Below, piece after piece: positions 13,619-52,964 of a stretch of DNA of 64,000 bases. Location: IMG/VR virus record IMGVR_UViG_3300002052_000002, positions 1-64,000 of that record; one strand, 5' to 3'. The position numbers and the translations under genes are program-made. This stretch comes from a virus. The stretch's first letter is position 1, and each line of letters opens with the position of its first letter. The notes below the pieces were generated by a model, which made no database searches, was not told where the DNA came from, and worked only from the letters and a program-made list of their open reading frames with translations.

Positions 13619-13815
13619 CGGCTGATTCCTCAAATTCAGCATCTATTACGTTGGCATCTCTGCCAGGTAATAGTGCTCTACCTCCCTTCATTAGGTACGT
13701 AGTGTCAGAAGTTAGACTTACTTTCTCTACATCACAACCAAGCTCTGCAGCGACGTCTTTCACTTGGTCTAGGATGTATTCGAGGTAGTCCATATCATCA
13801 TCGTGAATTTGAATG

Positions 13816-14259
13816 TCAAGTTCTATCTTCGCCTTCATCTTCCTCCCCTATTTGATAGTAATATTCTTCGTCCTCTTCATCCTCAAGCTTATCGCCTCTG
13901 AGAATTCTTTCTATTATATCTAGTGGGATTCCCCTCTCTTTTAAATCCTCTATATAGACTTCATATGGGTCTGTTATAATCATCAACTCAAAGTTTGGGG
14001 AACTATTTCCACATTCTCTGCATTCATATCTATCTATTTCAATTTGTTGATGCTCCTCATCTAAATTTTCTTCAGCTCTTCCAAACTCATCAACAAGTGA
14101 TATTCCCCTAACAGTTGATGTCCACATGGCGACTATGTTCTCTGGAGCTCTACAGGCAACACACCAATACCTACCTCCACCGCCTACACTACTCAGCCAC
14201 TCATCATACGTGGGGATATTTATTTCTTTCTTCTCTGGTTTGTTTAGAATAATTTTCAT
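13816..14259 (-). CDS. Zn-ribbon protein (CxxC...CxxC), MKIIL N-terminus, acidic tail
   Basis: CVAC and CREC motifs. Confidence 0.7.
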   Translation of the reverse strand: MKIILNKPEKKEINIPTYDEWLSSVGGGGRYWCVACRAPENIVAMWTSTVRGISLVDEFGRAEENLDEEHQQIEIDRYECRECGNSSPNFELMIITDPYEVYIEDLKERGIPLDIIERILRGDKLEDEEDEEYYYQIGEEDEGEDRT

Positions 14260-15309
14260 AACCCATACCTCTCAATCTCTTCTATATCTGTCAATAGCAT
14301 CCTTTCTCTTGGAAAATGCTTCTTGACGATTCTACACATATTATATGTGTAATCGCAGGAAGCATCCGCCCTAAACATCTCTATGAATTTATAATTTTGC
14401 CCCCTGAAATCTAAACTAAGTTCTCGAACTTCTAAATCATCTGGTCTTTCTGAGGCGATGACGATTCCTTTTTCAGTTGCTGGATGTTTAAACACCCAAA
14501 AGTATGACATTATTTTCTCCCTATTTTCATTCTGCGAAGGATTTCTTCTTTGATTCTCTCCCTCTCTTCTCCCCACTTCACATTATCACCTTTACGGTAA
14601 TTTCGCTCTTGCAACTTGGTAGCTAATAAGAGAGACCGTAACAATGCCTCATCATCAAATTCTCCATAGTTATAGCTGACCATTCTGCACCTCCTTTGTT
14701 GCTACATCTGTGGCCTCTACTTTATAGATTGTGTGGATATGTTTAGTTTTCAGGAAGAACTCAATTGATAAACCAATAAAATCCACAGCATTATCTGATG
14801 CTTCCCTAATTATACCTCTATCTACCCCTGTCCAATACTTATCAGAATGGTTTCGAAGCCAGAAGTATTTCATTATAACCCCCTAACACATACTGGAAAT
14901 CCTTTAGATTCCTGTGGTTCCTTTGGCATATCTGAATCTTCCTCTAATGTTTCTCTATGGGAAGCTAATGCAAGTCTCATACCTATTCTATCTTTGTTGA
15001 AATACTTGCATCGTTTCCACCAGTCTTCCCCCCGCTTTTTCGTTGGGAAAGTTTCAATCCAGATGACCTCTCCGTCTTCTTTCCTAAAGACAAACATAAG
15101 CCACCAATGGAATTCCAGCATTTTTCTACCACATTGATCTTGATTTATCATTTCCTTTATCCTCCTCTTCTGGAGTAAAAAGGAGTTTGAAGAATACTTT
15201 CTTACAATCTGGACATTCCATCCTATCGAAAGTAGAATGTATTTTAATCGTAGCCACTCTTACCAATTCGACATGCTTTTTACAGCGAGGACAGAAATGT
15301 ACTATCTTG

Positions 15310-15600
15310 TCACTTTCCATTCTTCACTCGGTCTCCTCTATACCATACATTTTCTTTTCTAGCTGGAGTCTGTACAAACATCTGCACATCGTCTCCATCT
15401 AGTCTGCCAATAACTACAGGGATGAACAACGCAGTGTATTCCCACGCACAGAGAGGCTCGAATTCTTTCTCAGGAATCTCATAGACTTCTCCATGTATTC
15501 CTTTGAATTCTGCTGCCTGTATAAATTTCCCACCCATCTGTTTCATCTTCCACTCGTTCTCAGCACCCCTTATAAGAGTGCCCCATACGAATAATTTCAT
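15310..15600 (-). CDS. Gamma-glutamylcyclotransferase (AIG2-like)
   Basis: LFVWGTL.RG..N and IHGEVYEI motifs; next to amidoligase. Confidence 0.85.
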   Translation of the reverse strand: MKLFVWGTLIRGAENEWKMKQMGGKFIQAAEFKGIHGEVYEIPEKEFEPLCAWEYTALFIPVVIGRLDGDDVQMFVQTPARKENVWYRGDRVKNGK

Positions 15601-15601
15601 T

Positions 15602-16873
15602 TTATTCCTCCTCTAATTTCTTTTCTGGCGACCATCTGTAGACACAGCCATTCTTATTATCAGAATGAGTATGCCACGACCCATCCAAATACCAATTCTT
15701 ATGAATGGCATTGATATCAAAGAAGTTGTCAACTCCTGAATAAATCATATCTAATAAAGCCTTATGGGTATTCTCGTGGTAGTTTGAGTATCTCCGTTTG
15801 ATAAGTCCTGCAAAGACTGCTTCATTAGATTTTATGACCTTCTTCGCTTTTGGGATATCATAATTATTTATGATTCCTACAATCACATCTTCTTTGACAG
15901 GAAGAATCAATTTGAATATCGGATAATTTAGCCCAAGAAATATAGCTGCTCTCGTCATATCATAAGAGAAATGATATACAACAGGAGAAACTAGGACTGC
16001 AGAACTTGGAGTCCTATATTCAATTCCATGGGATGGGAAACGATATTCCCCCGCTCTTCCATAGTACATCCGTCTTAATGGGCTTTCAACTTTTTGAAAC
16101 ATTGAGACAGACATGATTCCAAAAATGGCATCTGCTGCCTTAATCATATTTATTTTTTCTTCTTCCTTCCTTCCACTTAAGCCAAAATGGAAATGACAGC
16201 CAGCGAATCTAATTGGAAGAGCCGCAGGGTCTTGGACTTGGATGGATGGCGTGTTATAAACATTTTTACTAGGGGCACACCCTAGTTCAATATGCTCTGG
16301 TTTAGCGTCCGCCATTACCTCTGTTGGGATATCCATCACACTTTTGTATGTGAACTGACATTTTCTGTCGAAGGCTCTAGCAGCTTTCCATAATTTGACG
16401 AGTTGATAGTGTGTAGCATCTGTGAAGTATGCTAAACATCCACCATGAGGAACAGTAAATTCCGCCTGGAATCCATCCCAAAATACTCCTTCCCCACTTT
16501 GTTTCGCTGCCTTTTTGTTAGGCAAGAATTTGAAGGCTGGAATTACGATGCCATCTTTGTCCACTACGAATATCTCTGGGTCACCTCCGACGGTGCATCC
16601 TGATACTTGAGCGTAGTGCAATAGCTTTGCCCTACTCTCTGCAGTCATCCCCTTTAAGTCGGCTGTTCCCGCTATAGTACAACGTTCACTCTCTTCCGTC
16701 CTGATGTAGGAACTGTTGCCATTATCGATGTCGATGAGTCTTCCAGATACTATCTTACTTGGTCTGTCATGATACATATCTGTGAAGACGCCGATGGTGC
16801 CCTGGTATTTGATTATCTTACCAGCGCATTCTATCAATAATGGGGGCATCTTCGACCGCCGTTTAAGAATCAT
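15602..16873 (-). CDS. Second phiEco32-like COOH-NH2 ligase (type 2)
   Basis: VGGDPEIFV, DGFQAEF, LGC.PS.NVY, RFAGCHFHFG, RRMYYGRAGEYR...HGIEYRTPS. Confidence 0.92.
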   Translation of the reverse strand: MILKRRSKMPPLLIECAGKIIKYQGTIGVFTDMYHDRPSKIVSGRLIDIDNGNSSYIRTEESERCTIAGTADLKGMTAESRAKLLHYAQVSGCTVGGDPEIFVVDKDGIVIPAFKFLPNKKAAKQSGEGVFWDGFQAEFTVPHGGCLAYFTDATHYQLVKLWKAARAFDRKCQFTYKSVMDIPTEVMADAKPEHIELGCAPSKNVYNTPSIQVQDPAALPIRFAGCHFHFGLSGRKEEEKINMIKAADAIFGIMSVSMFQKVESPLRRMYYGRAGEYRFPSHGIEYRTPSSAVLVSPVVYHFSYDMTRAAIFLGLNYPIFKLILPVKEDVIVGIINNYDIPKAKKVIKSNEAVFAGLIKRRYSNYHENTHKALLDMIYSGVDNFFDINAIHKNWYLDGSWHTHSDNKNGCVYRWSPEKKLEEE

Positions 16874-17352
16874 CTTCTATACCTCCTTTTCTTTTTTGGT
16901 TTCTCCTCTTCAGGGAGTTGTTGAATTGTTAAAGTACTAATCCTTTCCACGTCAAGCTCGCTTCCCCACGTATTTTTACCTTCTAAATGTAAGAAACAAT
17001 TCTTCGGGTTTCTCACAATATCTCGAAGGTTCTCATCTAAACTTTCTTCCTCATCATAATAATTATCAATTAGTTCTCCTTCGAGAATTACTCTAATCCG
17101 CATCACATCACCTCCTTAATGTCGACTACATATGTAAGTCTACTAGTTCTTTCAAATGCTTTCGTGCTTCATTTTTCTCTTCTTCAGTAGAAGCCATCCA
17201 ACAATTGAAGTGCATATAAGTACGAGTATTCTCTTTGGGTTCTCCACATTTGAAACAGTGAGTTAAAACGAATTGCGAATTTCCAAGGTCATTTCTGATA
17301 AGAGTGATGCCGATGTCTACTTTTTTCTCTTCCCATTTATGAAATACTTTCA

Positions 17353-17766
17353 TTAGTTATGCCATTTCCCATCTAAGATATGAGCCATTTCATGCCCGAA
17401 AGTCCGTAAAATTATGGAGCCATCTTTCTGACGTGGAATATATATTTCCTTGAAATCGATTTGCCCATTGTCCTTCCTCTCCCAGTCAATCTCCATCCCA
17501 CCTACTTGCTCAGGTGTATACTTTGGGTAATGCTCTTTGATTACTCTCTCCCATGTCTCTTCATCCACAAATCTAATAGTTATTGGGATTTCTACCATCT
17601 TATCCCCACGTTCCTCTTTCTGGAAAATTTTGTACATATCTTGTTTTGGAACCCAAGTATAATCTCTTGCAGGGATTGGAGAAGAGTATGTACCCATAAC
17701 AAGAAAGATGGCGATAATGCCTGTAAAGATTAAACTAACATAGTTTCTCTTCAAAAACTTCAGCAT
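17353..17766 (-). CDS. Membrane-anchored protein with HExxH zincin motif
   Basis: N-terminal hydrophobic helix; C-terminal FGHEMAH. Confidence 0.55.
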   Translation of the reverse strand: MLKFLKRNYVSLIFTGIIAIFLVMGTYSSPIPARDYTWVPKQDMYKIFQKEERGDKMVEIPITIRFVDEETWERVIKEHYPKYTPEQVGGMEIDWERKDNGQIDFKEIYIPRQKDGSIILRTFGHEMAHILDGKWHN

Positions 17767-18178
17767 CTACACTCCCCTTTCCTTCATTGTTTTCCTTCTT
17801 CCCTTCCTCCATCTTTTGACCACGAGAAAGAAGTCCAACAAATGATTCAATAGTTATAGCTTCTGCTAGTAAGGAATTGTCTCTCATTCCAACAAGTTTG
17901 CCATAGAATGTATCTATAGGTAGGACAGCGATTTCCCTTACTAAGCGAAGGCTCCTCTCTATGTAGGCTAAGTCATATGGGTACATCTCCGATATATTTT
18001 TGATTAATCCTTTCATAGAGCCTCCTTTTAGACATCCTTATATGTTTTATGTGGCGGGATTCTATATCCTATTCCACCTTCATACTTTAGTTCTTGTGGT
18101 AATAACCTGCGGTTACAAATAGGACATCTCACACGCCTACGCTTATCCAAGAATAAGACATTACTACATGGACACCAC

Positions 18179-19060
18179 TTATAGGTTCGTTTCTTTTTTA
18201 GTAGCATAGTGTTCTTCCCTTACTCTACGTTTCACCATCAACGCAGTTTCCCTTCCAATAGCCTTTTTTGCTGCTTCGGTTATTTTAACTTCCTCTTTGC
18301 CCTCTTTCTCAATATCTTCTATCATTAAGGAAATGATTTCCCCTATATTTTCAATTGCTAATTCAACCTTCCCACTCGTGATTATATGATTTAACCTTTC
18401 CTCAGTCACCCACTCATCCACGATGTCTTTTGCTTCTTCCAACATCTTAAGTTTATCTAATACTTTCCTTGGAGTAGCTGTTTCTCTGAACTCATCCCGC
18501 TTATGTTTAGCAATTATTCTTTTACCATCGTTCTTAGTCACCTCTTCTAATGGGCGGAGAACAATTCCCTCTCTTTTATGTCCAGCTCCCATACCGTTAC
18601 GAATAGCTTGGACAGAGTCTGCATCTCTCTCCGCATCAATAGCTTCGAGAGTTGTGGGTATTCGTTTGTAATGCACAAACTCAAGTCCTAATCTCTCACA
18701 GAACTTCTCTGCTTTGAGAACGTTCAACCAAACATTCCCAATCTTTACTTCGAAGCAAACGAATTTTGGTGCATCTCCGTAAGTAGCTGACATCCTTTGG
18801 AATTTACTACCATAGAACTCTCCGTATACGTGGATACTCCTATTTGGAGGAGATACCTCTTTGAATATCTCAAGCAATTTCCCCTCATCAAATAACTTTA
18901 CGAATATTTTATGAGGAAATCCGCCTGAGAAGAATGATATATTACCATTCTTATAACTAATATGAGCGGAAGTTCCATGTATCTTTTCCAGCGCATAGCA
19001 CTCTTTGAATTGAAAGATGTCTTGATTTTTGTAGAGATTATCTATATCCATATAGCTCAT
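18179..19060 (-). CDS. Rnl2-family ATP-dependent RNA ligase (start moved to ATG 19060)
   Basis: Motif I EKIHGTS, III YGEFYG, IIIa FVCFEV, IV REGIVLRP, V IAKHK; GGGAGG RBS before MSYMDIDNLY. Confidence 0.88.
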   Translation of the reverse strand: MSYMDIDNLYKNQDIFQFKECYALEKIHGTSAHISYKNGNISFFSGGFPHKIFVKLFDEGKLLEIFKEVSPPNRSIHVYGEFYGSKFQRMSATYGDAPKFVCFEVKIGNVWLNVLKAEKFCERLGLEFVHYKRIPTTLEAIDAERDADSVQAIRNGMGAGHKREGIVLRPLEEVTKNDGKRIIAKHKRDEFRETATPRKVLDKLKMLEEAKDIVDEWVTEERLNHIITSGKVELAIENIGEIISLMIEDIEKEGKEEVKITEAAKKAIGRETALMVKRRVREEHYATKKETNL

Positions 19061-19081
19061 ATAACGCCTCCCTATAAAATC

Positions 19082-19119
19082 AGATTGGCTTTTCAAGGGT
19101 TAGTTGCTGAAACCAATCT
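19082..19119 (-). ncRNA. CAGCAA hairpin element 1 (in RNA ligase leader)
   Basis: AGATTGG-TTTCAGCAA-CTAACCCTTGAAAAG-CCAATCT. Confidence 0.8.
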
Positions 19120-19435
19120 TCGAAGATTTGCAGGATAGATAGGATTCCTCATCCTGCGAGTTATTTATAAATACCTATTGGGCCAAAATACACTATCAGT
19201 CGAAACATCTCCCGAAGAACCACAAATATCTCGATAATAGAATTCCGTATGACAGTGTACACAAATTCCTTCAGATTTGAGAATTTTGCAGATGGCTTGA
19301 GCTGCCTTTTTACTTAATCCGTTTAACCGTGTATCACCTGTTATGATATAATGTTTTTTCCTCCACAAAAGTTTCTCTCTACTATTAATTTCGTATCTCA
19401 TAAGACCTCCTTTAGTCATCCCCTCTAAACTATTC

Positions 19436-19489
19436 AGGCTGGAGGTTTTCAGATTAAATGTCTGAGCCTTTGGTTGCTGAAACCAGCCT
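19436..19489 (-). ncRNA. CAGCAA hairpin element 2 with tRNA-Lys-like anticodon arm
   Basis: AGGCTGG-TTTCAGCAA-CCAAAGGC-TCAGA-CATTTAA-TCTGA-AAACCT-CCAGCCT. Confidence 0.8.
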
Positions 19490-19934
19490 TCAACACTTAT
19501 ATTATCTTTACCTGATTAAGTTCGATGAAAAACTTCTCTCCGCAACCTGCACACTGTAGATAGACAGGATTATTTCTGTCGTCTCTTATTCTGAAGAATG
19601 CGTAGCCACAACTACATACCCACGTTCTTGGTTCTACTACTACAGGAGACCAGTGGGCTTCTCGTTTTAGTGTTGGTTTTGTGGCATGGGAACCAATCCA
19701 AAATTTTATACTCATCTCTTTCCCCCTCTCTTACTTAACTTCATTGGGTTGATTTTCTTTTTACTTGTTGGGTCAATTACTACAGGTAGTATGTGAGTTC
19801 TACTTGCACATCCGCCCAGCTTTGTCCATAATTTAGTAGGCTCTACGTGCCTATCACAAATCTGCCCCCATTTGATATGGTCACATCCTTCATCTTGTTG
19901 GCACTTCTGATGGAGCTCTAAGTTACTGAATTGA

Positions 19935-20036
19935 TTAATGCTTCTTGATATTCCGAATATCATTTCTTCTCCTCTTCGTAGACCCATCTTGCCCAAAAGT
20001 TTGTCCATCAAGGTCGTTATGGTGGAATATCTTCAT
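19935..20036 (-). pseudogene. N-terminal remnant of a DHH-family phosphoesterase
   Basis: GGAGG RBS, then MKIFHHNDLDG (DHH motif-1-like), then unrelated sequence and a stop after 33 aa. Confidence 0.5.
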
Positions 20037-21142
20037 TATTATCCCTCCGATGCTGCTTTTAGTTGGCAGTAGATTTCGTAGCAGGTCGGATGGAAATACC
20101 AAATTCCTCCGTCCCACAATTCTAAAGGTTTGTAGATTTCCATTATTTCTTCATTACACCATTTACATATTGGGTTATGGCTTTTAGTTTTTTCCATCGT
20201 CATATTTTATATGGTCACACAGTGTGTAGAACTATTAAACCATCGCCATCTCTTAAATCTTCTTTGCAATGTTCACATTTATGTACGAATCCATATTTCT
20301 TTTCATCATAATTTCCAGGCACTAGTACGTGGGGCTTCTGTACTAACTTACTTCTCCTCCTCTTCATCTAACGCCTCCTCTCCTTCTTCCTCTTCTTCCC
20401 TCTTCGCTTTATATAAGAATGGGTGTAGGTATCCAATCCTCTCTTCGATGCTCATGTAACTTAGCTGCGGTTTAATGAGTCCCATCTTTTCTCCCTCCAC
20501 TAATCGCTCTCTAAGTAAATCTCCCCATCGTCTAACTGCCCTACTCCATGCTTCTTACATTCTTCTTCATGTATTCTCTTCGCAGGACAGTTGCCAGCGA
20601 AGCATTTATAAAACTTATGCTTTTTTGGATGGAGATATCCGCATTCGTTGCACGCTTCCTTTATAGCTTTATTCTTCTTCTCTTCCATCTTTCCATTTCC
20701 TCTTCATCTTCTCTAGCTTTTCTCGTTCTCGTTGAAGATAGTTCCATCCCCACGCCATTGTAAAGACCCCGAAAAATATTAATGGTAATGCAGGATGGAG
20801 CATCTTAAGTCCTTTGCCCAGTAAAACCGCCCCAAAGGCGAGGACACCAAGTCCTACCAAACCGTCAATAATTGGAACTATAAAGTCTCTATTTTTCATC
20901 CGTATCCTCCTGCTCCCATCTTCCGTAATATAGTTTGCAATGCCCCATGATATTCTTTTGGGACTCCAAATCCCTCACAAAATGGGCAACGTGGAATCTT
21001 ATTCTTTTCCAACTGCTTTTCATACCTATAGATTAGAATAAATAGCCAGAGGAATCCAACTCCACAAGCCATAAGGAACATCGATAGCAACATAAGTATA
21101 ACATTAATCATCTTAGCTCCTTTCTTAAATGATTTGTTTAGC

Positions 21143-25271: not shown

Positions 25272-26747
25272 TTATCCCTTTGTCCTCCTTTTCCTTGGAA
25301 TCTTAATCTTATATTTCTCAAGCGTCCTTAACATAACACCTTTAGGAGTCAAGTCTTCCGCACCAAAGATGGCTTTCAATATAGCTGGACTAAAGCCAGA
25401 TACTAATGCCACATTCTTATGTTTCGTAGTCGTTGGTTGTCCCGCATAACCAGTCGTATTCCAATAGACAACTTGAGGAATATCATATCCAGCCTCAAGC
25501 CATTCATCCAATACATTCTCAACCTCTGCTTTCTTACCTGTTGTTCCTTGATGGAACTGCATATCAGAAACGATAAGAAGCATATTAGGCATGCCCTCTT
25601 TCGATACGTTGAAGAACTTCGCTGCTTTTAATAATGTTCTTAATGCTTTAGCTATCTGCGTAGAGCCAACCGCACCATCAAAGATGGTATGACTCTTCAC
25701 CGCTTGAGAGAACTTCATACCATTCCAATCCTTAAGTTTGCCCTCAGAGCAGAAAGCTAGGAACTTCTTATAGAATGGATTGTCCTTGGGAATCTTAGCG
25801 GAGCAGTATAATGCCATCCCTTGGCTGATGTGAACAGCTTGCACAGAGCCACTTACTGCTGTGCTCATAGAACCAGAAGTATCACAGACTACAATAGGTC
25901 TTGCTCCTGTTTCCATGTAATTTGGTAGGGCATCAAACTGTGCATCGGCAATCTTGCTATCACCACTAAGTACAGTTCTTACACAGTCGTGTGGAAACAG
26001 CACATCACTATGGATAGTCGCTTTGCCCTTTTCCAAAGCTTCCTTATACGCTTCGAATCTCTCCGCATCATGCCTTCCAAATGCTTTGGTGTAGCGTGCC
26101 ATAGCCACTGAAGGAACATGCTCGTATGTAATTTTGTTCCATTGATTTGAACACATCTTATACTCAACGATGTGGTCTTTCCGAATCTCAGCGAGGATTT
26201 TCCTAAATGCCCTCTCATTTAACGAGCCTGCTCTTCGCAAAGGCTTATCGCTTCTGTCTGCCCACTTAGCAGCCAGCACATCCTTCTCACTCAAAGCGTG
26301 TGTCCATAGCTTTACAGCTATCTTCTCACACTCTGTGCCGAATAGAGTGCGAAGGTCATCCCACCTTCCAACCAATGGAATCCAGCCAATATTGAGGTCA
26401 ATCCATCTTGGGTCTTCCTTAGCCAACCATCCAAGACAGGCTCTGAATCCACTTCTATTCCCTGCTCCACCACGACAATCTCTCAGCCATAATAGAAGCT
26501 TAAAAGATACTGTTGGGTCAACTATCCAGGTCTTTTGGAACAGAGATAAAGCGGAATCTTCGCTGCCGTAGAAGGTTCCCTTCTTAATAAATAGAGAACC
26601 AGCCTTACTAAAGAATTCCACAGCATGGTCTAGAGAATGCTCATACTGTTTCGCTCCTTCATGTGTCTTATCAGGAGTCTTTGGAATCCTATAGTCTTCC
26701 CCTTCCATCTCTTCATCTTCAAATTCGTCTTCGTAATCGTCCCACAT
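25272..26747 (-). CDS. DUF2828 family protein (Ro60/TROVE-like helical region plus vWA domain); start moved to ATG 26747
   Basis: LWLRDCRGGAG.R, GRWDDL, LAAKWA, I.Y.HVPSVAMARY.KAF, MIDAS VCDTSGSM, SDMQF, VVYWN, ALVSGFSP; AGGAGG RBS. Confidence 0.88.
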   Translation of the reverse strand: MWDDYEDEFEDEEMEGEDYRIPKTPDKTHEGAKQYEHSLDHAVEFFSKAGSLFIKKGTFYGSEDSALSLFQKTWIVDPTVSFKLLLWLRDCRGGAGNRSGFRACLGWLAKEDPRWIDLNIGWIPLVGRWDDLRTLFGTECEKIAVKLWTHALSEKDVLAAKWADRSDKPLRRAGSLNERAFRKILAEIRKDHIVEYKMCSNQWNKITYEHVPSVAMARYTKAFGRHDAERFEAYKEALEKGKATIHSDVLFPHDCVRTVLSGDSKIADAQFDALPNYMETGARPIVVCDTSGSMSTAVSGSVQAVHISQGMALYCSAKIPKDNPFYKKFLAFCSEGKLKDWNGMKFSQAVKSHTIFDGAVGSTQIAKALRTLLKAAKFFNVSKEGMPNMLLIVSDMQFHQGTTGKKAEVENVLDEWLEAGYDIPQVVYWNTTGYAGQPTTTKHKNVALVSGFSPAILKAIFGAEDLTPKGVMLRTLEKYKIKIPRKRRTKG

Positions 26748-26785
26748 AATTAATCCTCCTTCCTTTCGTAACTGTAATACTATAG

Positions 26786-27667
26786 TTACTCCTTCCTTAT
26801 ACACGCAGTCCCATTGAATTCTTCAGATGCTCTAAAATATCTACCAGTGAACTGGATAGTATCCACATGTGAGTATAATATACCAGACCACATTCCAAAT
26901 CGAGATTGATGCCAATTAATATGGAACAAGATTGTGTATTCTTCATCGCTTGGTAGATATCTTAAGTCCCAGTACCCTTGTAATGGTCTGAAATAGTTGT
27001 AAGTATCCCTTCTCGTCATCTCAAATTCAAGTATTTGATAGGGCAGAAGGCACTCCTCACACTCCACAATCATCTGCCCAGTAGCATTCTTATCTTCATC
27101 TAATTTTCCATATAGGGTGTAGAAGACATCACAAGGTGCTACTTGTGGAGCTCTCCAATCTCCTTGAGGAAGCCATCTTATGTGTGGACTTGAGGTATGC
27201 CATGATGGGTCGCCAGTATGATATAGGAAATGTCTATTCAGTTCCCAAAAGAAAGCTGTACCTACAAACGCATCATTCCCTTGTCCTTCGTCATCCCCCA
27301 TATGTATCACGATAGTATTTGGTGCCCTGTAGTACCCATCTAGACAGCCATATGCAGTACGCATTTCTTTAGTGTCTAGCTGTTCCTTATCTACACACCG
27401 TTTATTCCAAGGGCGTATAACTACTCGTAGCTGTTGAGGATTTAGCGATGTTTCGAATAGCCCATTCATGATAGTAAACGCTTCATCTAACGCTTCCCAT
27501 TCTATTTCATTCCAATCCTCATAAAGCCAGTGCTCTTCGTACTGGTTGATGGCTCTATCTCTTGCTTTGATGAGTATCCCATTAGGCGTGGTAGTAGTCC
27601 ACGCATCAGAGATAGAACAAGTTGCCATTAACAATAACCACGCTAATATAACAATGAACTTCGTCAT
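26786..27667 (-). CDS. Secreted hypothetical protein
   Basis: Signal-peptide-like N-terminus. Confidence 0.6.
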   Translation of the reverse strand: MTKFIVILAWLLLMATCSISDAWTTTTPNGILIKARDRAINQYEEHWLYEDWNEIEWEALDEAFTIMNGLFETSLNPQQLRVVIRPWNKRCVDKEQLDTKEMRTAYGCLDGYYRAPNTIVIHMGDDEGQGNDAFVGTAFFWELNRHFLYHTGDPSWHTSSPHIRWLPQGDWRAPQVAPCDVFYTLYGKLDEDKNATGQMIVECEECLLPYQILEFEMTRRDTYNYFRPLQGYWDLRYLPSDEEYTILFHINWHQSRFGMWSGILYSHVDTIQFTGRYFRASEEFNGTACIRKE

Positions 27668-30783: not shown

Positions 30784-31199
30784 TGTGCTTCCCTATAATG
30801 TAAACGAATCATAGAATATTGATTTGGTTGAAAGTTTGCACATAGTAATCCTGCTTGTTTATATGTATTACATTGTTGACAAGCATTGGATTCAATACTA
30901 AAGTTCGCACAAGTATTCTTTAAAGGCTTCAATGCTACGAAGCCTCTCTTTACGTAGAAATCGTATTTATGATGGGCACAGTCTAATTTTGGAGTCCTAT
31001 GTAGTTCCTTATTACAATAGGATACCGCGGCCTCTAACAATGCAGTTCCATATCCTTTCTCTCTATATGCTTCTTTTATATAAAAGCCCGCAATATATCC
31101 CGTCTCATCTACCTCTAGTTCTCCAATAGATTCTTCTCCTGAAAGGAGTTCTATCTTTTCCCAGCTACCGAAGGCACGTCTTACTATCTCCATCTTCAT
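30738..31199 (-). CDS. GNAT acetyltransferase with Cys-rich tail
   Basis: FYIKEAYREKGYGTALL; FYVKRGF. Confidence 0.85.
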   Translation of the reverse strand: MKMEIVRRAFGSWEKIELLSGEESIGELEVDETGYIAGFYIKEAYREKGYGTALLEAAVSYCNKELHRTPKLDCAHHKYDFYVKRGFVALKPLKNTCANFSIESNACQQCNTYKQAGLLCANFQPNQYSMIRLHYREAQCKLKSSMGFILSHR

Positions 31200-32199
31200 T
31201 GGGATTCCCCTTTCTCTATTGCTCCGATTCCTAAGAATGCACGAAGCCTTCCAAGTAATCCAATGTTAGGTTCTTCCCTATCTTTCTCCTCATTATAGAG
31301 CCTTTGCGCTCTCTTCCTTGTAAGGTCAAACTTATGATAGACGGAAGTCCCTCTTAATCTCTTGTTTAAGTTGGCGAAAGGTTGCATCCTATTTCTCCTT
31401 CCTTAATACTTTGATAGTACTCTTCGCGGCTTTATCCCATTTACGTCTGGTCTTTTCTGATGCATATTTAAAAGTCTTTCCCTTTTCGAGTAGTTCCTTT
31501 ACTTCTTCCTCACTCTTCGCTTCGAGTATCTGATTCCTTAGCGACATAAAGCACCTCCTTTATGTAACTGCGAATATGGGATAAATACCCAGCTCTCCCC
31601 TATCAATGGCATTCAATGTTTCTTCTGAGCAGAGCTCATTCAAATATTCTATGATGACACGCCACGCTATTCGCTTTGCTTCCCTTATTGAACGCCGCTC
31701 TGCTGGGTTATAACTGATTGTTCCATTAGAATTCCATCTCATGGCTTACTTCCTTTCTTCTGGATGACCACAAAATATACAATGGTCATAGTCTTCATCG
31801 ACGTATACACAGTGGTCAATAGGAGAATTAGGGCATTCCCATCCATCTTCTAAACTGAATGAGACTGTGCTGACCTCCTCTATATCTGTGCACTGACGGA
31901 TGATTTCTTTGCCCAATTTCTTCAAGGCACTTTCCTTCCTTGCTTCAGCGTCATCGATTAATAGTTGCATAGCCTTGATATTAGCAACTAATCCCATGAA
32001 TCCTTCGAGCATATCTTAACCTCCTATACCATCTCAGGGTGTGCCTTAGCTACCCTTTTAGATAGCTTCAGTCCTTCTTGCACTTCCTCTTTCTCTATAG
32101 GAATGTTATGTCCACACCCTGAGCAATGGAGATATGAACAGCAAGTGATTAACATTCCTTTACCACAGATAGGACAAGCTTTTGGTTCAATAAATGTAT

Positions 32200-32442
32200 T
32201 CATGGTCGCACTCCCCTTTCTCTTTTATATCTCCCATTTTGCTTGACAAATATCTCTATTTGCCTTGGCTTCTTAACTATGGGAGTGGGATTGCATTTAA
32301 CATGGGCGAGCTTATAGGAAGTGGTATGATGACCCAAGACTTTATACATAGTGGGATATAACTCTGGAGATTTTCTGCTAACTAACTGATTGCATATTTG
32401 ACAAATCCCTCTGTATCTATGCACAATATCTTTGAGCCTCAT
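32200..32442 (-). CDS. Degenerate HNH-like protein (start moved to 32442)
   Basis: RY.GICQIC ... LAHVKCN; the central DH appears to be lost. Confidence 0.5.
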   Translation of the reverse strand: MRLKDIVHRYRGICQICNQLVSRKSPELYPTMYKVLGHHTTSYKLAHVKCNPTPIVKKPRQIEIFVKQNGRYKRERGVRP

Positions 32443-32472
32443 ATAATCACCTCCCTTATGTGGTAAGTAGAT

Positions 32473-32513
32473 AAAATAAAAGGGGAGCAAGGCCAAGAAC
32501 CTTACTCCCCTTT
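32473..32513 (-). terminator. Intrinsic terminator closing the large structured region
   Basis: Minus strand GGGGAGTAAGG-TTCTTGG-CCTTGCTCCCC-TTTTATTTT. Confidence 0.85.
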
Positions 32514-33530
32514 CTGATGTTATTCCTTTTTAGTTTCTCTTCGGCATTGGAACAACTACTATATTGAAGCACTCAGTTTCATGTTATCGTGTTGAACTGA
32601 GTGGGTAAACCATCACTCTCTATTGACTTAGAAGCTTCCGCTTCTCTCTCTGCATTTTAGTTGACGGCTTTCCACTTTAGTCCGCCTGATTACCAGATTA
32701 GGATGAACGCTTGTATTAACTCCCATATCATCCTTACTTGGAGCATATAATCTATGTAGGCTTTTATTCCTTGCCATAGATAGCAGGTAATATTTCAGCT
32801 CTCCTTGGTTTATCTCCGAACGTAACCAACTTGGTTACTTGACTGTTTCCCTCTCTCCGCTTACTCAAGTGTATAAGCAGAATTCACGGCTTATTTCTTG
32901 CCTTAATCTGTAGCTTAGATAGGCAAGCTACTTTAGGCAATAACACCGTGAGAGAGTAAACCCAAGAGCTTTCTCCGTTACCACGGCTTCGGTATACCCC
33001 GCAGGATAACCAGCGTTTTTGTTGACGGGGAACTCGCATCCATAAGGCGTTGCCTTTATCCGCTGTTACAAGCTGGCATCACCAGTCCATCTGTGCAACT
33101 GGCTTGCTACTTGTTAAGAATCGCTATGTTACAGTAAGGTATCCGCTTAGGGTATATATCCGACCACCTTTCGTATGGCTCCACCCATCATCTTCTAACC
33201 CTCACATAGCTAATAGTTGTCACCAAGCTAATGAAACTTGATGGAAAGTTTAAAGGAGTTTAACCATTTTTCGTTGACTATCGCATCCCTTGTGTGAGAT
33301 ACCAGTTAAGGGATGTCCAAGTTATCCACTCCTCAAGGCAGGCATATAATATTTGAGTCCTCTAAGGTTCGCATTTATCCGAAAGTTAATTGGCATTATG
33401 ACGAATAAATCATTTGAACCGCTCTACCCTTATATGCCACATATATTCAGGCACTTTCAAGCCTTGGCTATATGCAAGCCATATATGATGTTATCTCTAT
33501 GCTTATATTAGCCATAGAGAATTGCATCCA
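32514..33530 (-). ncRNA. Candidate large structured non-coding RNA (~0.9-1 kb)
   Basis: No minus-strand ORF of 60 aa or more; more than 10 nested helices; G-U pairs and GNRA loops favour the minus strand; 5' boundary uncertain. Confidence 0.7.
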
Positions 33531-34326
33531 TACCATAGAATAGAGTAGGTCAGTCTATAAATTGTTTCATATCACCAGCTTTGCGAAGAATAATAGTGGG
33601 AATAAACTTCTTCTTAGCTATTCCCCTTGCATTCTTATTGAATATCTTAATCTTCGCTCTGCCCTTTACCATCAAAGCACCCTCATTACATTTGCCATAC
33701 CGAACTCTATGGCGTATAATATCCCAGTTGGTATGACCCTTAAGGTGTCGCTTTATATGTCCGTAAGCGTGGCGTCTATGATAGCATTTAATTCCTATCA
33801 TCTTTAAGCTCCACAAAGAGCAGAGTCTTAAGCATCTCCATCACTTCCCAATATGCGGAAGCCTTACCCTCAAAGTAAGCCTTAAGTTGCTTACTATTTC
33901 TCTTCTCTTCTGCTTCTTCCACAATGGTCTGTGCTGTATGATGCTTAGACGCTAAACTCTCCAGTATTCTTTCGATAGCCTTTCTCATATGCCACGCTCC
34001 TTTCTGCTACCAATATTCCTGCGTTTTATTTCAGCAGGATAATAGCACTTAAAGTCCTGCGTGGCATTAGGCTTCTTATGGAGCAGATTCATTTTGAGCC
34101 TGTCGCCGCAGGATTGACAGCATTTAGTCGGATGTAAGTCCGTGTTTTTATAAGGCTTCTTCATCGACTTTCCCCTTTCTATCTCCTTTAATCGTTCCAT
34201 ACACTATTAAGTATGCTAATACACACAAGCAAGGAAACCACAAAGGAGATGTGAAGAATAGAATTGTCAGCATAAATGCATATGCTTCCATATTATTCTC
34301 CTTCCCGACTAACCTACTCTATTCAA

Positions 34327-34338
34327 TTTTCAAAGAAC
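34327..34338 (-). promoter_or_regulatory. boxA-like antitermination element GTTCTTTGAAAA
   Basis: Resembles rrn boxA; related copies at 34717-34728 and 35129-35140. Confidence 0.55.
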
Positions 34339-34340
34339 GG

Positions 34341-34455
34341 GGACTCATCAGTGTAGCTATGAGCTACATATAGGGGAGCATCAGATTGATTTGGGTTTGC
34401 ATTCACGCAGTTTAGTTGCGGAAATCAACCTTCAACTGCTCCCTCTATTTCGTCC
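34341..34455 (-). ncRNA. Type II hammerhead ribozyme, predicted cleavage after AUA (between 34369 and 34368)
   Basis: GGAC-GAAA-[stem III TAGAGGGAGCA...TGCTCCCCTA]-TA-[stem I TGTAGCT-CAT-AGCTACA]-CTGATGA-GTCC; complete conserved core. Confidence 0.9.
34383..34431 (-). ncRNA. Hairpin element 7 (CCGCAA variant) nested in hammerhead stem III
   Basis: AGGTTGATT-TCCGCAA-...-AATCAATCT. Confidence 0.75.
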
Positions 34456-34463
34456 TTCTATGC

Positions 34464-34508
34464 AGGTTGGAATTGTCCGTATAAGGGTTTAATTGCTGTA
34501 TCCAACCT
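34464..34508 (-). ncRNA. CAGCAA hairpin element 8, immediately 5' of the hammerhead
   Basis: AGGTTGGA-TACAGCAA-TTAAACCCTTATACGGACAAT-TCCAACCT. Confidence 0.8.
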
Positions 34509-35164
34509 TCATATAGGATTAATCGCCGATAGACACCTTCAACTCCTCTTCTAGTAGCGGCTTCAATTCCGCCCTATCCTGTGCATTGAACCCCTTGATT
34601 TCACGAGCGAATTCGCCAACAGACTGGTTATGGAGTTTACCAAAGAATCGGCTACAAGCAGCAGCAAAACTAATCTTCTCTCCGTCTGCCATTCTTGTCA
34701 CCCCTTTCTTATTTGGATTTAAAAGAACAATATAGATAAGGGATAAGGGAAGGATAGAAGATGGGAAGTAATCAAGACCATTTAGTAGCGGTATCTAAAC
34801 GCCCTTAGAACCGCCCAGAGCTTTTTCAGTTCGAGCTTATTTAGCATGGCTACATCCCATGAGAAGTGAATAGGGTAGCCATTAAGGGTATACATCGAAT
34901 CGACAGGAACCAACTCTTCTATGACCTTTGGCATTGACTCTTTACCTTTCTTTTTTTGCCAATATATGTCATGAAGAATGGAAGATGTACATCGGTATCT
35001 ATTGACCAACTTCTCATCCAACTCAATCGGCATATTGTTGACAACGATTACCATAGCGTATTCCCCTTTCTGCAGTAAAGGGAACTGCGACTTCCCTTTC
35101 CTTCTTCCTTTCCCTTTCCCTTATTCTATTTTCAAAGAGCTGTAAAGTGGTGTCAAATAGGCAT

Positions 35165-35210
35165 AAAAAAAGCCCATATAGACGACCATTATAGTCAATC
35201 CATATGGGCT
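35165..35210 (-). terminator. Intrinsic terminator
   Basis: Minus strand AGCCCATATG...TATATGGGCT-TTTTTT. Confidence 0.75.
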
Positions 35211-35339
35211 TATATATGCTGTTATAAGCAGGAATCTGATTGACAGATTATATCGTTATATCGCTCGGCTTATAAGACGGTCTATATAGGCAACAAAAGG
35301 TCGCTTAGATGATGTAATCTACAAACAACTTGGTGCAGA

Positions 35340-35708
35340 TTACAAATCAAGCAATTCGGCCAGCAAGGTCATGTTCTTCTTCGTGGACTCCTTGACCTTA
35401 TGCTCAACGGTCTTGACGAAAGATAGGCTAAATCCGCCCTTCACAGGCTTGCCGTATATCTTTCCTTCCCGAATGAGTTTCTGGCTTTCATCGATAGGGT
35501 CATAACCCAGCTCTCGAAGAGTGTCATTTAGCGACTTCATCTTCTGGTCGCCAATGACTGGCTTGAAATAGACGGTATGGCAAGAATAGACGACTCTAGG
35601 CTTGCCATCATTCCCTAACTTAGGTGTGCCATCTTCGTTCTTTAGTGGCACTCCCCTTTCAGCGGCTTTGATATAAGCACTGATAACTGCTTCTGCAGTA
35701 GGCTTCAT
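35340..35708 (-). CDS. Hypothetical protein, first clear gene of the left arm
   Basis: ORF with AAGGAG RBS. Confidence 0.7.
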   Translation of the reverse strand: MKPTAEAVISAYIKAAERGVPLKNEDGTPKLGNDGKPRVVYSCHTVYFKPVIGDQKMKSLNDTLRELGYDPIDESQKLIREGKIYGKPVKGGFSLSFVKTVEHKVKESTKKNMTLLAELLDL

Positions 35709-36120
35709 AGTGTTCTCCTTTCCACTCCATCTGGAGTGCGATAATGAGGGTTTAGTAGCACATAGATAGCCTATACAGACCGCCTAACAAGCCGAACGAT
35801 ATGTAGTTTAGAAAGAGCGTCATCGTTGCATCCGTTTGCACCGATGATTCAGTCGGCCTAACCGACTTTCGACCCCAACTTAACACGATTTTGGTTATCC
35901 ACATCGGTCGGATGGGCAAAAACTCCAATGATTTTCGATACTTCCGAATCCAAATCCACAAATTTCGATATTTCAATCGGAGAAGTGCCACCTAACCAAG
36001 GTTGTGATGAACCACATACCCCCCCACCATGCCTAAACAATCCCTTACACCGACTCCGTTTCATATAAAAACCTCGATATATAACATAGAATGCTTATCT
36101 GGACTGGAAAACCCATAAAC

Positions 36121-36171
36121 TTGCCGGAAATTACAACATTTCTTACATAGATAAAGGTATATATCTTATAG
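36121..36171 (+). promoter_or_regulatory. Candidate phage-specific promoter motif, copy 3, facing the right arm
   Basis: TTGCCGGAAATTAC-N21-GGTATATATCTTATAG. Confidence 0.5.
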
Positions 36172-36880
36172 AAGCCAATAACTTGGTTATATATTATTTG
36201 GAAAATGCGCATTGGCGCAATTAATTTGGGCCCCATTGACAATTTGTACCATCCCATCACCTCCTTGAGCGGGAAATCCTCCTTTATGGGGCCCTAAATT
36301 TAAATATGAAGAGTATAAAGGGTATAGTTACTAGAGAAAGATGTCATCTGTGTAATAAGATAAACTCTGTTGGGTTTTGGGTTCCTAATAAGGTATGGAA
36401 GGCTGTTGTACCCAAGAACCTACAAGAATCTGTATTATGCATAGCCTGTTTTACCGACTTTGCGGATGAAAGACTTATAGAATGGGATGAGGAAATAGCA
36501 TTCTTTCCTGTCAGTCTAATCAATCATCTTAGATTTATAGAGGTTATAGATAAATGAAGAACTTAATAAAGAGGATAGGGAGATGGATTATGGATTCCCT
36601 GGAGACTGTAGGGAAGATATATGACAGATATCCTTGGTATCCTTTAGGAGGATTATAATGAAAGAGGATTATAAGGATTATATATTAGAGATTGGGCTTC
36701 CGGAAGGATTTAAACTTCTGGACTGTAATAGTGAGATACTAGGATGGAAAGCTCCTAATGGAGAGGCAGCTAGACTTGGTATTATATCCATAGATACATG
36801 CCCTATTAGAATGTTTGTAAAGGTAGTTGGTTTCGAGGACTTCCGAGCTCCTGTAAGATCCTGGGGAGAGAGACGTATAT

Positions 36881-46614: not shown

Positions 46615-49600
46615 TGCTTACAGGAAGAAATCCAGATACAGGAGAATTTCAGGAAGTATCAGTTACTAGTGGTGGAGAAGTCTTAATAACAGGAGACATT
46701 GAAGCCGCTGCTGGCCCTACTGATGTGTATAAAGCGTCGGATATAGATGAGGGAACTACTAGCTATTTTGGTTTTATTGATGCGGATGGAAATTGGTATA
46801 TTTTGAAACTAACTGATACTCAAGCACGATATGCCGTTGGTACACCCCCAACATCCGCTTATACTGATGCCTGGACTGCTAGAGCTAGTCTAACTTATTA
46901 TTATTTTTATGAGGTGTTTTAATTGGCAACACCAAGCTATACGACAGGATTAACAGGATTACTTCTTGAAATGCCAAGTACTTCAGGGTGGACAGCCCTT
47001 GGTGGTGGAGCTGGTGCATTAAATGCTCCTGAGACCGATGTTTTTATCCAAGGAGCAAATTGCATTGATAAAGGTTATTGGTCATCTGCCATTAAAGGTA
47101 TGATCTATAATATGGGATCTGACCAAGCTATTCCTGCTGACAATGCCCTTTACATATGGTTCCAATATACCGCTCCTCCTTCATTAGATACAGAAGCTAA
47201 TGGTGGAATCCGAGTAATAATTGGAAGTGGAACTGGTGATTATAATTATTGGTATGTAAAAGGGAAAGATACTTATACTTACGGTGGCTGGTTTTGTGCT
47301 GTAGTAGATCCTACTATCACTCCTGATAGTGCAGTTGGTTCTCCAACAGGTGCTCATCAATATTTTGGTGGAGTAGCAAATCTCCCTGGAGATGGTCCTA
47401 GTAAAGGGTATCCTTGGTGTATAGATGCTTTTAGATACGGAAGAGACTTTTATATAGGGAATGGAGAAGATGGAGACGAAGCTACTTTTGCGGGAGCAGC
47501 GGCTACAAATGATTTATCTGGAAATAGGTATGGACAATTCCAGGCAATAGATGGTGGATATTTAATGCAGTGCCGCCTAGTTATTGGGACTGCGACTTCT
47601 GCTGTGTATTTTGAGGATGCAAATACTCAAGTAATTATAGCCAATACTAAAAGAGTTTGTGCTGATTTTAATAAACTCGAAGTTAATAATGCTTCAAGTT
47701 ATGTATCTTGGACAGCAATTTCATTCTTAGCTCTTGGAACAGTTTCAAGAGGTGATTTTGAAGCGGTAGATGACGCTGATATAAATATAGATTCCTGTAC
47801 TTTTACGGATATGGGAACCTTCCTATTTAAAAGCAATAGTGCAATCGATAACACTACCTTTAGACGATGCGGCCAGGTTACACAGAATTCAGCTGAATTT
47901 GGTGGATGTATATTTGCTAATTCTTATGCTGCAATAGCTTTGTGTGCCAATGATCCCTCAAAACTTACTGATTGCTCGTGGACTTCAACTGGAACTGGTC
48001 ATGGTATTGAATTTACTACTACAGGTGAATACACATTCAATGGAAATTCATTCAGTAATTATGGAGCAGATGAAACAACTGATGCGGCCATCTATAATAA
48101 TTCAGGTGGGCTAATCACTCTAAACATTGGTGGTGGAGGGGATGGTAGTCCGACAGTTCGAAATGGATCAGGAGCCTCTACAGTACTTTGTGCTGGATTA
48201 GTCACATTAACATTAACAAACGTGTTCTCTGGCAGTGACGTAAGGATTTTCGACCAAGCTGGACCACCTCCAAATATCTTAGCTTCGGCAGATCCTTTTA
48301 CTGCAGCTGGATCAACAGGGAATTTCGAATATTCTTATACATATTCTCCTGATACATATGTGGATGTTGTAATTCATAAAGAAGATAAACAATGGTATTT
48401 TATTAACGATTATTTATTGGGGAATGCAGATGCTAGCATCCCAATTTCCCAGTTAACTGATAGACAATACACAAACCCTTAAGGAGGTTGAATAAACTAT
48501 GGCAATTATGGTTGATCCCGATTATTTAAATGACGGGACAGAAATTATTATTACTCCAGCTAGTAAGACTGTGCAGCTAGTAGAAACTGGCAATCTGACG
48601 AGTGATGGAGTAACTATCAAATGTGTTTATTCGAAATTGAAGGAACTATGGAAAACGAATAATACATACATAAAGTATGCATTTCCTATGACTCCAATTA
48701 CGGACGAGCAGTTTGAAATGGTTAATGACTGGGATTGGGCAGATAGTACTACACGATACCTACTTAGAACTGGTGGGTGGGCTGTTAAGAATACTGGTGG
48801 AATTTCTACCGCAGAATGGTCTGGTATTGTAGGACTAGGTAGCCTTGAATCAGATGCTCAGGTATACTTTCAGCAAGGCTTAGCAGGAGCAGCAGGAAGT
48901 GCTGCATCTAATTTCCAATTAACAGGGCAAGTAAATCAGGCTATCCAAGTTTATGCATCTGGTGGGGATGATTTTAGATCATACTTAAAATTATTCTGTC
49001 GACATTGGGGATATTCGTTTGCTCAAGTTGAAATAGATGATATTGGTGTTTCAACTCTTACTTATCAGGCATATCGATTCCCATTGACTCATGTAGCAGA
49101 TCCTAAAGTTACTCAACCAATGTCAGCGATGTCTGCATCTCCATATACCGATATTAGTGCTGCTTGGTATTCGGCCGCTCAGCAAAGAGATATTGGAGGA
49201 ACAAATCGTGATTTCCACGTCATAATTGATGCTTCTGATGAAAACCTTGAAGATGCATATATGAGAATACAGTATTTATTGCTATCAGGTGGAAATATTA
49301 ATACTGGCGGAACTTATGGAACAGTAGTTGGAGACACAGCAGATCACCTGTTACATTTTACTGGAGACACTCTATATACAGAATTCTATTCTATTGAACC
49401 TACTGGTGGAACATATATAGATAATTTCCAAACTGATGACATCAATCGACTAATCTTTGTAGATGATACTGGAACAGAACGGCAATTCCCATATACTGCA
49501 GTCCTTACGCTTCAGTTTGGAGCTAATGTCTACGGCGATTCTAATTCTAAATATTGGGTATATTTTACGGATATTCCAAGTGGTAATTATGGAGATTCGG

Positions 49601-50548
49601 ATGCTTATTTAGTTAATACAGATAATTATGTTGCTACTGTTGCTAGAGCACGTAATTCTAATACCGCATACTTAACTGCAGCCAATGCTCATGGATTGTC
49701 TGCTGAGGATGGTATCGAAGTAGTGGATGTTGGTGGAGCTGGATATAATGGTGTATGGATAGTTTTAGATACTCCAAGTAACACTGAACTATCTTATGCT
49801 TGTACAGCTGGAGATGAAAGTTATACTGCTGATACTGATGGAACAATCTATGAGCAAATGGCTGGTAAAGTATGGGGACAATCCTCTGTTCAGAAATCAT
49901 TTGCCTATGATACTAATAGCCAGGGTGGAAGAACATCTGGTTCTAATGCAGACGTAACTGCGGTATCTATTGGCCTATCGTCTTCTCAGTTTGTTCTAGC
50001 AACTGGAACTATTCAGAGAAGTACTGCCAACTCGGTTTCATTGGTTTCGGCCTTGGAAAGAAACTACCAGAATCCTGCATAACTAGGAGGATGGCATGGC
50101 GTATACTTTCGATGGTACTAATAAAATTATCACGTACTCTATTGGAACAACTGCAATAGATGTGAAAGATATCTATTCCAGATGGAAGAATTGGGTCCAA
50201 GATGAAGGAAGTATGTATCTAAAAGCTATAGATATTGTTGGTGGGGATCCAATTGATGAAATTAATGGGATTTATATTTCTACGTATGTATTTCTTATAA
50301 ATGGTTGGAGGATTCGGCCAGCAGAGGAGAATCATAAGGTAAAAGTACATAGTGGGATCCTACTGACTGATGTTGGAGAAAGTCCCTTTATCTCAACTGT
50401 AGGAAGTTATAATGTACTTGTAGAGTATTCACAGCCAGTTACTTCACAGACTGTAATGCTAGAAACGGGAATTAGTGGATTAACACAGGAAGAAAGTGAA
50501 CAGTTATTTAAAGCATTAACTACTGCAAAATTCTTGGCTTTGAAATAG
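46614..50548 (+). CDS. Four putative virion proteins (46614-46922, 46923-48482 with beta-helix-like region, 48499-50082, 50096-50548)
   Basis: G/S/T/D-rich composition, tight coupling; the last two have similar N-termini (DG..+II......I.+K.+YS..K..W). Confidence 0.7.
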
Positions 50549-51147
50549 GAGTACTGATGAATTGGTTATATAATATATTATCTCCTAGAAATGAATTAGA
50601 ATCGATAGAAGCGATGCTGGTCCACAGATTACCAGAATTCTTATACACGTCAGTTCCTGATATAGCGTTTCCTGAGCCGACGACCAGTGAATTGTTAAAT
50701 AACTTGATTAGACATGATTTTATTATACATCCTTCGACAGGGAATGTTATGACCGCATGGGATGTTAATAAAGTAGTAAAAGATAATTTAAAAACTATCT
50801 CCCATAATATGGCTTTAGAGTCACAAGTTGTGGAGAAAATCAAACCTATTCTTACGCGAGGTCTTCTTCCGGAATACCAATCACCAGGATGGGCACGATT
50901 TCTAAGATATTTGTAGGAGGTTTAATAATGCCGAAGAAGAGCGATAACGAAATGAATGGAGAACAATCATACATATCTAAGATTGAAAGTGCAGCTAGAA
51001 AAAAGATGTATGATTTTCTAGGGTGGAAGAAAGAACAAGGCCCAGAAGCTCCAAGGGCTTGGAGAGCAAGAAAAGAACAAGGTCCAGGATTCTGGGGAGC
51101 AGATATTGGAGTTTCAGAAGAGAAAAAGAAAAAGTAAGGGGTAAATT

Positions 51148-52950: not shown

Positions 52951-52964
52951 TATAGGAGACTAAT

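Follow-up and report, generated by a model that had tools for sequence, protein, structure and literature searches.

An untranslated, partly structured kilobase at the end of a leftward early unit in an uncultured phage: candidate for an orphan large non-coding RNA

Does the longest untranslated stretch of a phage genome, whose genes are elsewhere packed end to end, carry a gene for an RNA? The stretch lies in the leftward arm of a phage whose 112.9-kb record is complete and carries direct terminal repeats; the window is its first 64 kb. The minus strand carries all credible genes from position 1 to about 36 kb and the plus strand carries them beyond, and the sign of the GC skew flips at 36 kb. 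Its portal is of the SU10 type and its terminase of the T4 type, and it also encodes many tiny proteins, COOH-NH2 ligases like those of phiEco32, and a DUF2828/DUF7788 protein. Since the terminase is less than 30% identical to any sequence from GenBank phages, the lineage is uncultured; fragments related to it came from groundwater and wetland metagenomes. In a 4-kb contig from another metagenome (L035, Ga0209635_10036408), 3,264 bp are 99.94% identical to the portal region at 49982-53245, so that essentially the same phage was present in a second sample.

The initial annotation described about 1 kb without ORFs, the largest non-coding gap of the arm, and proposed a large phage RNA. Its extent was borne out, as 32497-33549 is the largest stretch in the whole genome without an ORF of at least 75 aa. 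The untranslated stretch and proposed RNA considered here, referred to as the gap, runs on the minus strand from a long-range stem to the end of a terminator (32478-33536, about 1,060 nt) and is ORF-free in all frames. TAA, TAG and TGA are each present in 4 to 14 copies in each of the six frames, so no reassignment of a stop codon opens a frame, and this rescue of a coding function was ruled out. A 3-base periodicity of GC content, clearly seen in six neighboring genes, is missing from the gap. Its open frames showed neither a match nor a remnant in Pfam and PHROGs and had no match in a collection of 5.8 billion protein clusters. At the protein level, the gap had no similarity to the other genes of the phage or to 1 Mb of related phage DNA, and a pseudogene remnant was rejected on the same comparisons. 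With stops in all frames, no periodicity, no small ORF led by a ribosome site and no Pfam or PHROG remnant, the gap is non-coding, as had been claimed. Its GC content of 41.5% corresponds to the 83rd percentile of 1-kb windows (genome mean 39.2%). Decaying DNA drifting toward AT would have a lowered GC content, which the gap lacks, and this favors an RNA gene.

Two starts within the gap deserve mention, being the only ones before ORFs of at least 15 aa with a Shine-Dalgarno-like context, both weak. The ATG at 32726, which opens a 32-aa frame, has AGGA 4 nt upstream, and start and site together lie inside a 10-bp helix with a pair probability of 0.92. The second has merely AAGG at -9. Genuine genes of this phage use strong GGAG/GGAGG ribosome sites, and the two gap frames tested had no recorded protein among 15 billion predicted proteins.

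If the gap does not encode a protein, it could belong to a catalogued RNA family. No hit was obtained with Rfam 15 cmscan at gathering thresholds over the whole window, and scans at E<=10, over 4.5 kb and, with the laxest filters, over the 1.1-kb gap alone, returned terminator-type noise only. The lack of a match at E<=10 excludes recognizable GOLLD, ROOL, OLE, HEARO and raiA RNAs, introns, RNase P, tmRNA and known ribozymes. The GOLLD model (RF01998), with its conserved 3' half, pseudoknots and E-loops, was unmatched both at gathering and at E<=10, and the covariance model of ROOL (RF03087) and those of OLE, HEARO/omega RNA, raiA and other catalogued large bacterial RNAs were unmatched at E<=10. 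The suggestion of a divergent GOLLD, ROOL, OLE or HEARO was therefore not sustained by the cmscan check proposed with it. HEARO was further rejected on the flanking 83-aa and 80-aa proteins, which lack IscB/TnpB-type domains. A group I or group II intron was discarded as well, as no model matched and the upstream gene has its own stop codon; the gene downstream of the gap begins past the terminator with a ribosome site and an ATG of its own. That the region bears no intron, tmRNA or RNase P hallmark agrees with the Rfam models, unmatched at E<=10. GOLLD and ROOL often sit beside tRNA genes in phage or prophage DNA. Here ARAGORN found neither tRNA nor tmRNA in the 64-kb window, and the initial annotation was right in seeing no tRNA genes. 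A hammerhead inside the gap was dismissed, with no CUGANGA on either strand of 32473-33545 and no ribozyme model match. Judged by these searches, the gap appears to lie outside every described RNA family, an orphan of a known kind.

The frames and the model searches together bear on one alternative, namely that the gap conceals at least one minute protein gene (the 32-aa frame at 32726, for instance) or is a large RNA of a catalogued family, so divergent that the models miss it. Tiny proteins are common in this phage, the ATG at 32726 has its AGGA, and extreme divergence can escape covariance models. Against this, that start and its site are locked in a helix, the other candidate has a poor site where real genes have strong ones, both frames are absent from the predicted proteins, and Rfam yielded nothing but noise even under the laxest filters. 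We regard this alternative as most improbable.

The gap is closed on its 3' side by an intrinsic terminator (32478-32514, minus strand) with a stem of 16-17 bp including 7 G-C pairs, a small loop, a U run and a mean pair probability of 0.97. The earlier claim that the region ends in a minus-strand terminator was confirmed: it is a strong one, with 17 pairs at 32514-32478 followed by a T run, and from 31000 to 36600 the minus strand has no other strong one. No such terminator separates the gap from a hammerhead-like element located upstream, in agreement with the proposal that both belong to the same leftward early unit. The ATG of the next gene follows 35 nt past the terminator. No promoter of its own was seen for the gap, and it contains 8 sigma-70-like sites versus 13.8 in shuffles. 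The non-coding nature of the gap, its minus-strand early context, the GC-skew switch and the sole strong terminator favor the reading as an RNA gene, which is weakened by the lack of a visible promoter. The same features would also suit a cis-acting 3' untranslated tail that shields the early mRNA from 3' exonucleases and separates the early unit from the genes that follow. Such a tail needs no promoter, would be continuous with the early cistrons up to the terminator of the unit, as the gap is, and would be followed closely by the next gene. Against it, the terminator hairpin suffices for protection of the 3' end, and a kilobase is costly in a tightly packed genome.

Folding of the whole gap gave -303.9 kcal/mol for the minus strand (z -3.96 against dinucleotide shuffles) and -271.3 kcal/mol for the plus strand (z -2.79). 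The better minus-strand energy and the location of all ORFs of the arm on the minus strand both point to the minus strand as the relevant one, as previously assumed, and many of the helices listed earlier do carry the reported G-U pairs. Elsewhere in this arm, three stretches of 1,036 nt gave z values of -1.46, -2.35 and -6.48, the last for the coding stretch 34600-35635. The folding z-score suggested as a check falls, for the whole gap, inside the range of its neighbors and does not by itself distinguish the gap. A thermodynamic z-score is in any case weak evidence of function when taken alone. Both this and the fact that a neighboring coding stretch equals or exceeds the whole-gap value weaken the RNA-gene reading. 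A cis-acting tail, in turn, is compatible with an early region that is generally structured, as heavy structure would then be a habit of the transcript and not a mark specific to the gap.

The structure is unevenly distributed along the gap. Its 3' portion (32515-32972, minus strand, 458 nt) is well folded, with a four-way-junction domain and the hairpins 32700-32734, 32607-32670 and 32570-32603. It reached z -5.30, 0 of 100 shuffles folding as well, and its helices have probabilities of 0.87-1.0; a GGAA-loop hairpin at 32630-32645 sits within 32607-32670. The 5' portion (32973-33536, minus strand, 563 nt), likewise non-coding, gave z -1.76, which 6 of 100 shuffles matched. In 180-nt sliding windows, the 3' half of the gap reaches z -4.8 and -5.2 and the 5' portion stays near 0, with none of the 120 windows of this size from six coding controls falling under z -3.7. 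The description as densely base-paired thus holds for the 3' 458 nt and fails for the 5' 563 nt, and the idea of the whole kilobase as one densely paired RNA was not upheld, the 5' portion having no excess over shuffles. The ten helices proposed earlier fared similarly. Seven were recovered at a pair probability of at least 0.7 (32570-32603, 32630-32645 with its GGAA loop, 32700/32734, 32855-32882, two nested in 32897-32940, and 33284/33315) and the hairpin 33221-33243 is present in the minimum free energy (MFE) structure, but 32935/33055, 33123/33210 and 33341/33438 found no support.

The four-way-junction domain (32795-32972, minus strand, 178 nt) has an MFE of -65.1 kcal/mol and a z of -5.54, unmatched by any of 200 shuffles, and its MFE and centroid structures are identical. 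A closing helix formed by 32964-32970/32797-32803 and 32957-32962/32807-32812 carries three hairpin arms at 32885-32950, 32856-32881 and 32822-32838. Folded as the plus strand, the domain gave -51.6 kcal/mol (z -3.77), 13.5 kcal/mol worse than the minus strand. The z values of the 3' core and of this domain, set against coding controls that never fall under -3.7, argue for an RNA gene; the ordinary 5' 563 nt argue against it.

Upstream of the gap, three long-range stems bracket early cistrons on the minus strand (33537-35803). The first, 35803-35768 paired with 35292-35257, has 33 bp and -57 kcal/mol and encloses a 122-aa gene. The second pairs 35130-35089 with 34770-34731 (about 37 bp, -45 kcal/mol) around a 90-aa gene, and the third, 34325-34306 with 33556-33537, consists of 18 contiguous pairs (-30.9 to -33.2 kcal/mol) around four small genes. 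Among 300 random pairs of 51x41-nt segments, the mean was -12.4 kcal/mol (sd 4.2) and the best value -25.5 kcal/mol; stems of -57, -45 and -31 kcal/mol compared with this random best speak for the RNA-gene reading. The 3' arm of the third stem (33537-33556) overlaps the stop codon of the 83-aa gene, and the gap begins at the very next base. We propose that this arm marks the 5' processing site of a gap RNA. A stem joining the two ends of the gap was also considered and rejected, as none comparable was found. For the cis-acting tail the position of the third stem is unfavorable, as a long-range stem just upstream looks built to part the tail from the mRNA. Taking this together with the points given above, we consider a purely cis-acting tail unlikely.

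Immediately upstream of the 5' arm of the third stem (34306-34325) are the hammerhead-like element and a boxA-like word, GTTCTTTGAAAA. BoxA-like words (GYTCTTTNAAA) cluster right before the stems, three of them in a 0.8-kb segment of the minus strand; two have a 17-nt repeat in common (TCTTTGAAAAT-W-GAATA); a scan for relatives with the repeated word gave chance matches only. An rRNA-operon-like layout around mRNAs, as seen at 33537-35803, is unusual. The hammerhead-like core was recognized by eye at about 34341-34455 on the minus strand (GGAC-GAAA ... CUGAUGA-GUCC). It has a stem III of about 11 bp with an inserted hairpin of about 50 nt, a closed 7-bp stem I with a CAU loop, and an open 4-bp stem II. 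In a scan of 211 nt, no Rfam hammerhead model matched this element at a cutoff as lax as E<=10, and from its visible core we call it a candidate, hammerhead-like element.

Relatives of the gap were sought at several levels. Its DNA had no match among 50,697 GenBank phages (blastn 'distant'), six-pattern probes made from its open frames had no match in IMG/VR, JGI metagenomes or GTDB genomes, and nhmmer, blastn and tblastx found nothing in any of the recovered relatives. A covariance model of the 178-nt domain was run on the remainder of the genome and on 0.7 Mb of DNA from related phages, and recovered the domain alone. With the portal as anchor, true relatives were obtained (G004-G009, L035-L060) whose structural proteins are 60-81% identical, and none of them reaches or carries the early module. 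The nearest long relative (G005, 102.6 kb, L063-L068) is syntenic for the structural and the replication genes, whose products are 30-70% identical. There, about 7 kb at 13200-20400, without a large gap, replace the early module of about 22 kb (about 14300-36600) that holds the DUF2828 gene, hairpin RNAs, the hammerhead-like element and the gap. From this comparison, the whole early module appears to be accessory. That no homologue occurs in the collections searched and that the nearest relatives are without the early module weakens the RNA-gene reading; since the whole module is an orphan, the want of relatives of the gap RNA carries little weight either way.

Two further observations were made during these comparisons. 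The DUF2828/DUF7788 gene (25272-26804, minus strand) has a product 60-70% identical in L003, L004 and L005. Used as an anchor, it retrieved three large phages (G001-G003; 96, 186 and 95 kb) that have nothing else in common with the present phage, a pattern that fits horizontal movement of the gene between phage lineages. A relative with a terminase of 76% and a portal of 81% identity (G004, L034) is without about 4.3 kb between the terminase and portal genes (comparison region 46615-50900), a segment that holds two ORFs of about 520 aa here; the difference would be an insertion or deletion inside the packaging module.

The genes on either side of the gap encode small basic proteins, both without relatives in IMG/VR; the identical 83-aa and 80-aa proteins occur on 4 and 3 contigs, respectively, the longest being 113,089 bp. 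The upstream gene (33550-33801, minus strand) encodes a very basic protein of 83 aa with no match in Pfam or PHROGs and a single homologue family in 1.84 billion representatives, P0003/P0004 (103 aa), found on contigs of 1.8-2.3 kb. P0003 is 47% identical to it (E 5e-7), and the motif KRHL-x-GH-x-NWD-x-IR ... NEG-x-L ... N-x-NAR ... ILRK is common to all three. Given an AlphaFold pLDDT of 38 and the missing Pfam and PHROG matches, this protein may fold only with a partner. The downstream gene (32200-32442, minus strand) encodes an 80-aa protein with a CxxC...HH...HxxC pattern, for which the protein collection holds no relative except itself. Its Atlas model resembles HNH endonucleases and the nuclease portion at the C terminus of reverse transcriptases from group II introns (TM 0.50-0.58). 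It may be a minimal HNH nuclease; we take this structural likeness as a lead only.

This neighborhood raises the possibility that the gap is non-functional DNA, left by one or more decayed genes or by a mobile element, with a 3' fold due to chance or a leftover. A homing-endonuclease setting would fit the HNH-like predicted structure of the downstream protein, and a scar would be expected to have no counterpart in any relative or database searched, to lie in a 22-kb accessory module absent from the nearest long relative, and to be as unremarkable as the 5' 563 nt are. The decay of a gene is difficult to reconcile with frames none of which resembles, at the protein level, anything in Pfam, PHROGs, the other genes of this phage or 1 Mb of related phages, with the absence of leftover codon periodicity, and with a GC content over the genome mean and not AT-drifted. 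A chance fold is opposed by z values of -5.3 to -5.5, unmatched in 120 control windows, and a kilobase of junk is rarely kept by lytic phage genomes. We hold this explanation to be unlikely.

A function at the level of DNA was also weighed: the gap could be where replication starts, where the genome is packaged or recombines, or where promoters or operators for the next temporal class cluster. The location between the early unit and the following genes would suit such an element, as would several short palindromic GCATAT/ATATGC and TCTATGG words in the 5' portion. Their enrichment is lost after correction for the number of words, and AGCGGA, present 4 times versus 0.15 expected, is not significant after correction for 4,096 hexamers. 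The gap has no internal direct repeats, iterons or CRISPR-like arrays and no AT-rich unwinding region. No promoter-like word is common to the gap, its 5' portion included, and other intergenic regions, and sigma-70-like sites are fewer than in shuffles. A DNA-level element is thus a very unlikely explanation. At the RNA level, a role as a sponge was rejected, as ribosome-site-like words are not enriched in the gap.

We therefore return to the gap as part of a transcript. On present evidence, it would plausibly be either an orphan large phage ncRNA or the structured 3' tail of an early transcript. Our preferred reading, to which we tentatively give somewhat less than an even chance, is that the gap forms the untranslated 3' end of the leftward early unit and most likely yields a discrete, stable, large ncRNA. 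RNA polymerase starting from an early promoter region near 36 kb would read through to the gap, and the upstream boxA-like words may help it to cross the untranslated kilobase without Rho termination. An RNase III-type enzyme would then cut the 18-bp stem 34306-34325/33537-33556 and free an RNA of about 1,060 nt, whose 3' end would be guarded by the terminator hairpin. The folded 3' core of about 460 nt would be the functional part and may act in trans early in infection. The core would bind proteins, as a scaffold or decoy, and would not be an antisense regulator; no significant complementarity to the rest of the genome was found.

A bolder version may be formulated, which we consider doubtful. 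The 3' ~460 nt could be the founder of a new class of large phage RNA, excised from a stem-bracketed, boxA-guarded early transcript of the rRNA-operon type. It could work as a ribonucleoprotein with both flanking basic orphan proteins, for example by sequestering a host RNA-binding or defense protein early in infection.

Large bacterial and phage RNAs such as GOLLD, ROOL and OLE proved to form remarkable RNA-only assemblies, and to our knowledge the abundant early long RNAs in several lytic-phage transcriptomes are understood by nobody. If the gap is a true RNA gene, it would add a case with a clear maturation route, consisting of the long-range stem and the terminator with boxA-like words and a hammerhead-like element upstream, in a phage lineage without a cultured relative. 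Its 178-nt domain is compact enough for chemical probing or cryo-EM. We regard the gap RNA, as predicted from sequence, as a lead and not a discovery.

Compared with known systems, the early transcript resembles those of rRNA operons and of the T7 early region, where processing involves RNase III stems and boxA antitermination, in that stems of 18-37 bp bracket segments of one transcript. As in rRNA operons, boxA-like GYTCTTTNAAA words precede the stems, and untranslated RNA follows the last of them. Unlike in rRNA operons, the stems enclose protein-coding cistrons and none encloses the gap RNA, and both cleavage and antitermination are putative. GOLLD (RF01998) and ROOL (RF03087) are large ornate RNAs, often found in phages and prophages, that form RNA-only cages (PMC12286853). 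The gap is similar to them in being a large multi-helix non-coding stretch of the same size class in a phage genome. It differs in that their models are unmatched, no tRNA genes are adjacent, just about 460 of about 1,060 nt are strongly folded, and no homologue family was found.

The closest parallels are with long early transcripts of other phages. In phage K, the early long ncRNAs lnc001 (635 nt) and lnc002 (1,154 nt) were found to be abundant by RNA-seq (PMC9241854), and in the crAss-like phage phi14:2 two long intergenic regions are transcribed (bioRxiv 10.1101/2020.03.07.982082). No sequence similarity links the gap to these RNAs in the search of all GenBank phages. Phage K lnc001 has an early promoter of its own, in contrast to the gap, for which none was seen, and these RNAs were seen to be abundant by RNA-seq, whereas expression of the gap is predicted from its sequence. 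As precedents of orphan early RNAs of 0.6-1.2 kb, they nevertheless favor the RNA-gene reading. Like them, the gap is intergenic and ORF-free, lies on the early-transcribed strand and belongs to no catalogued family.
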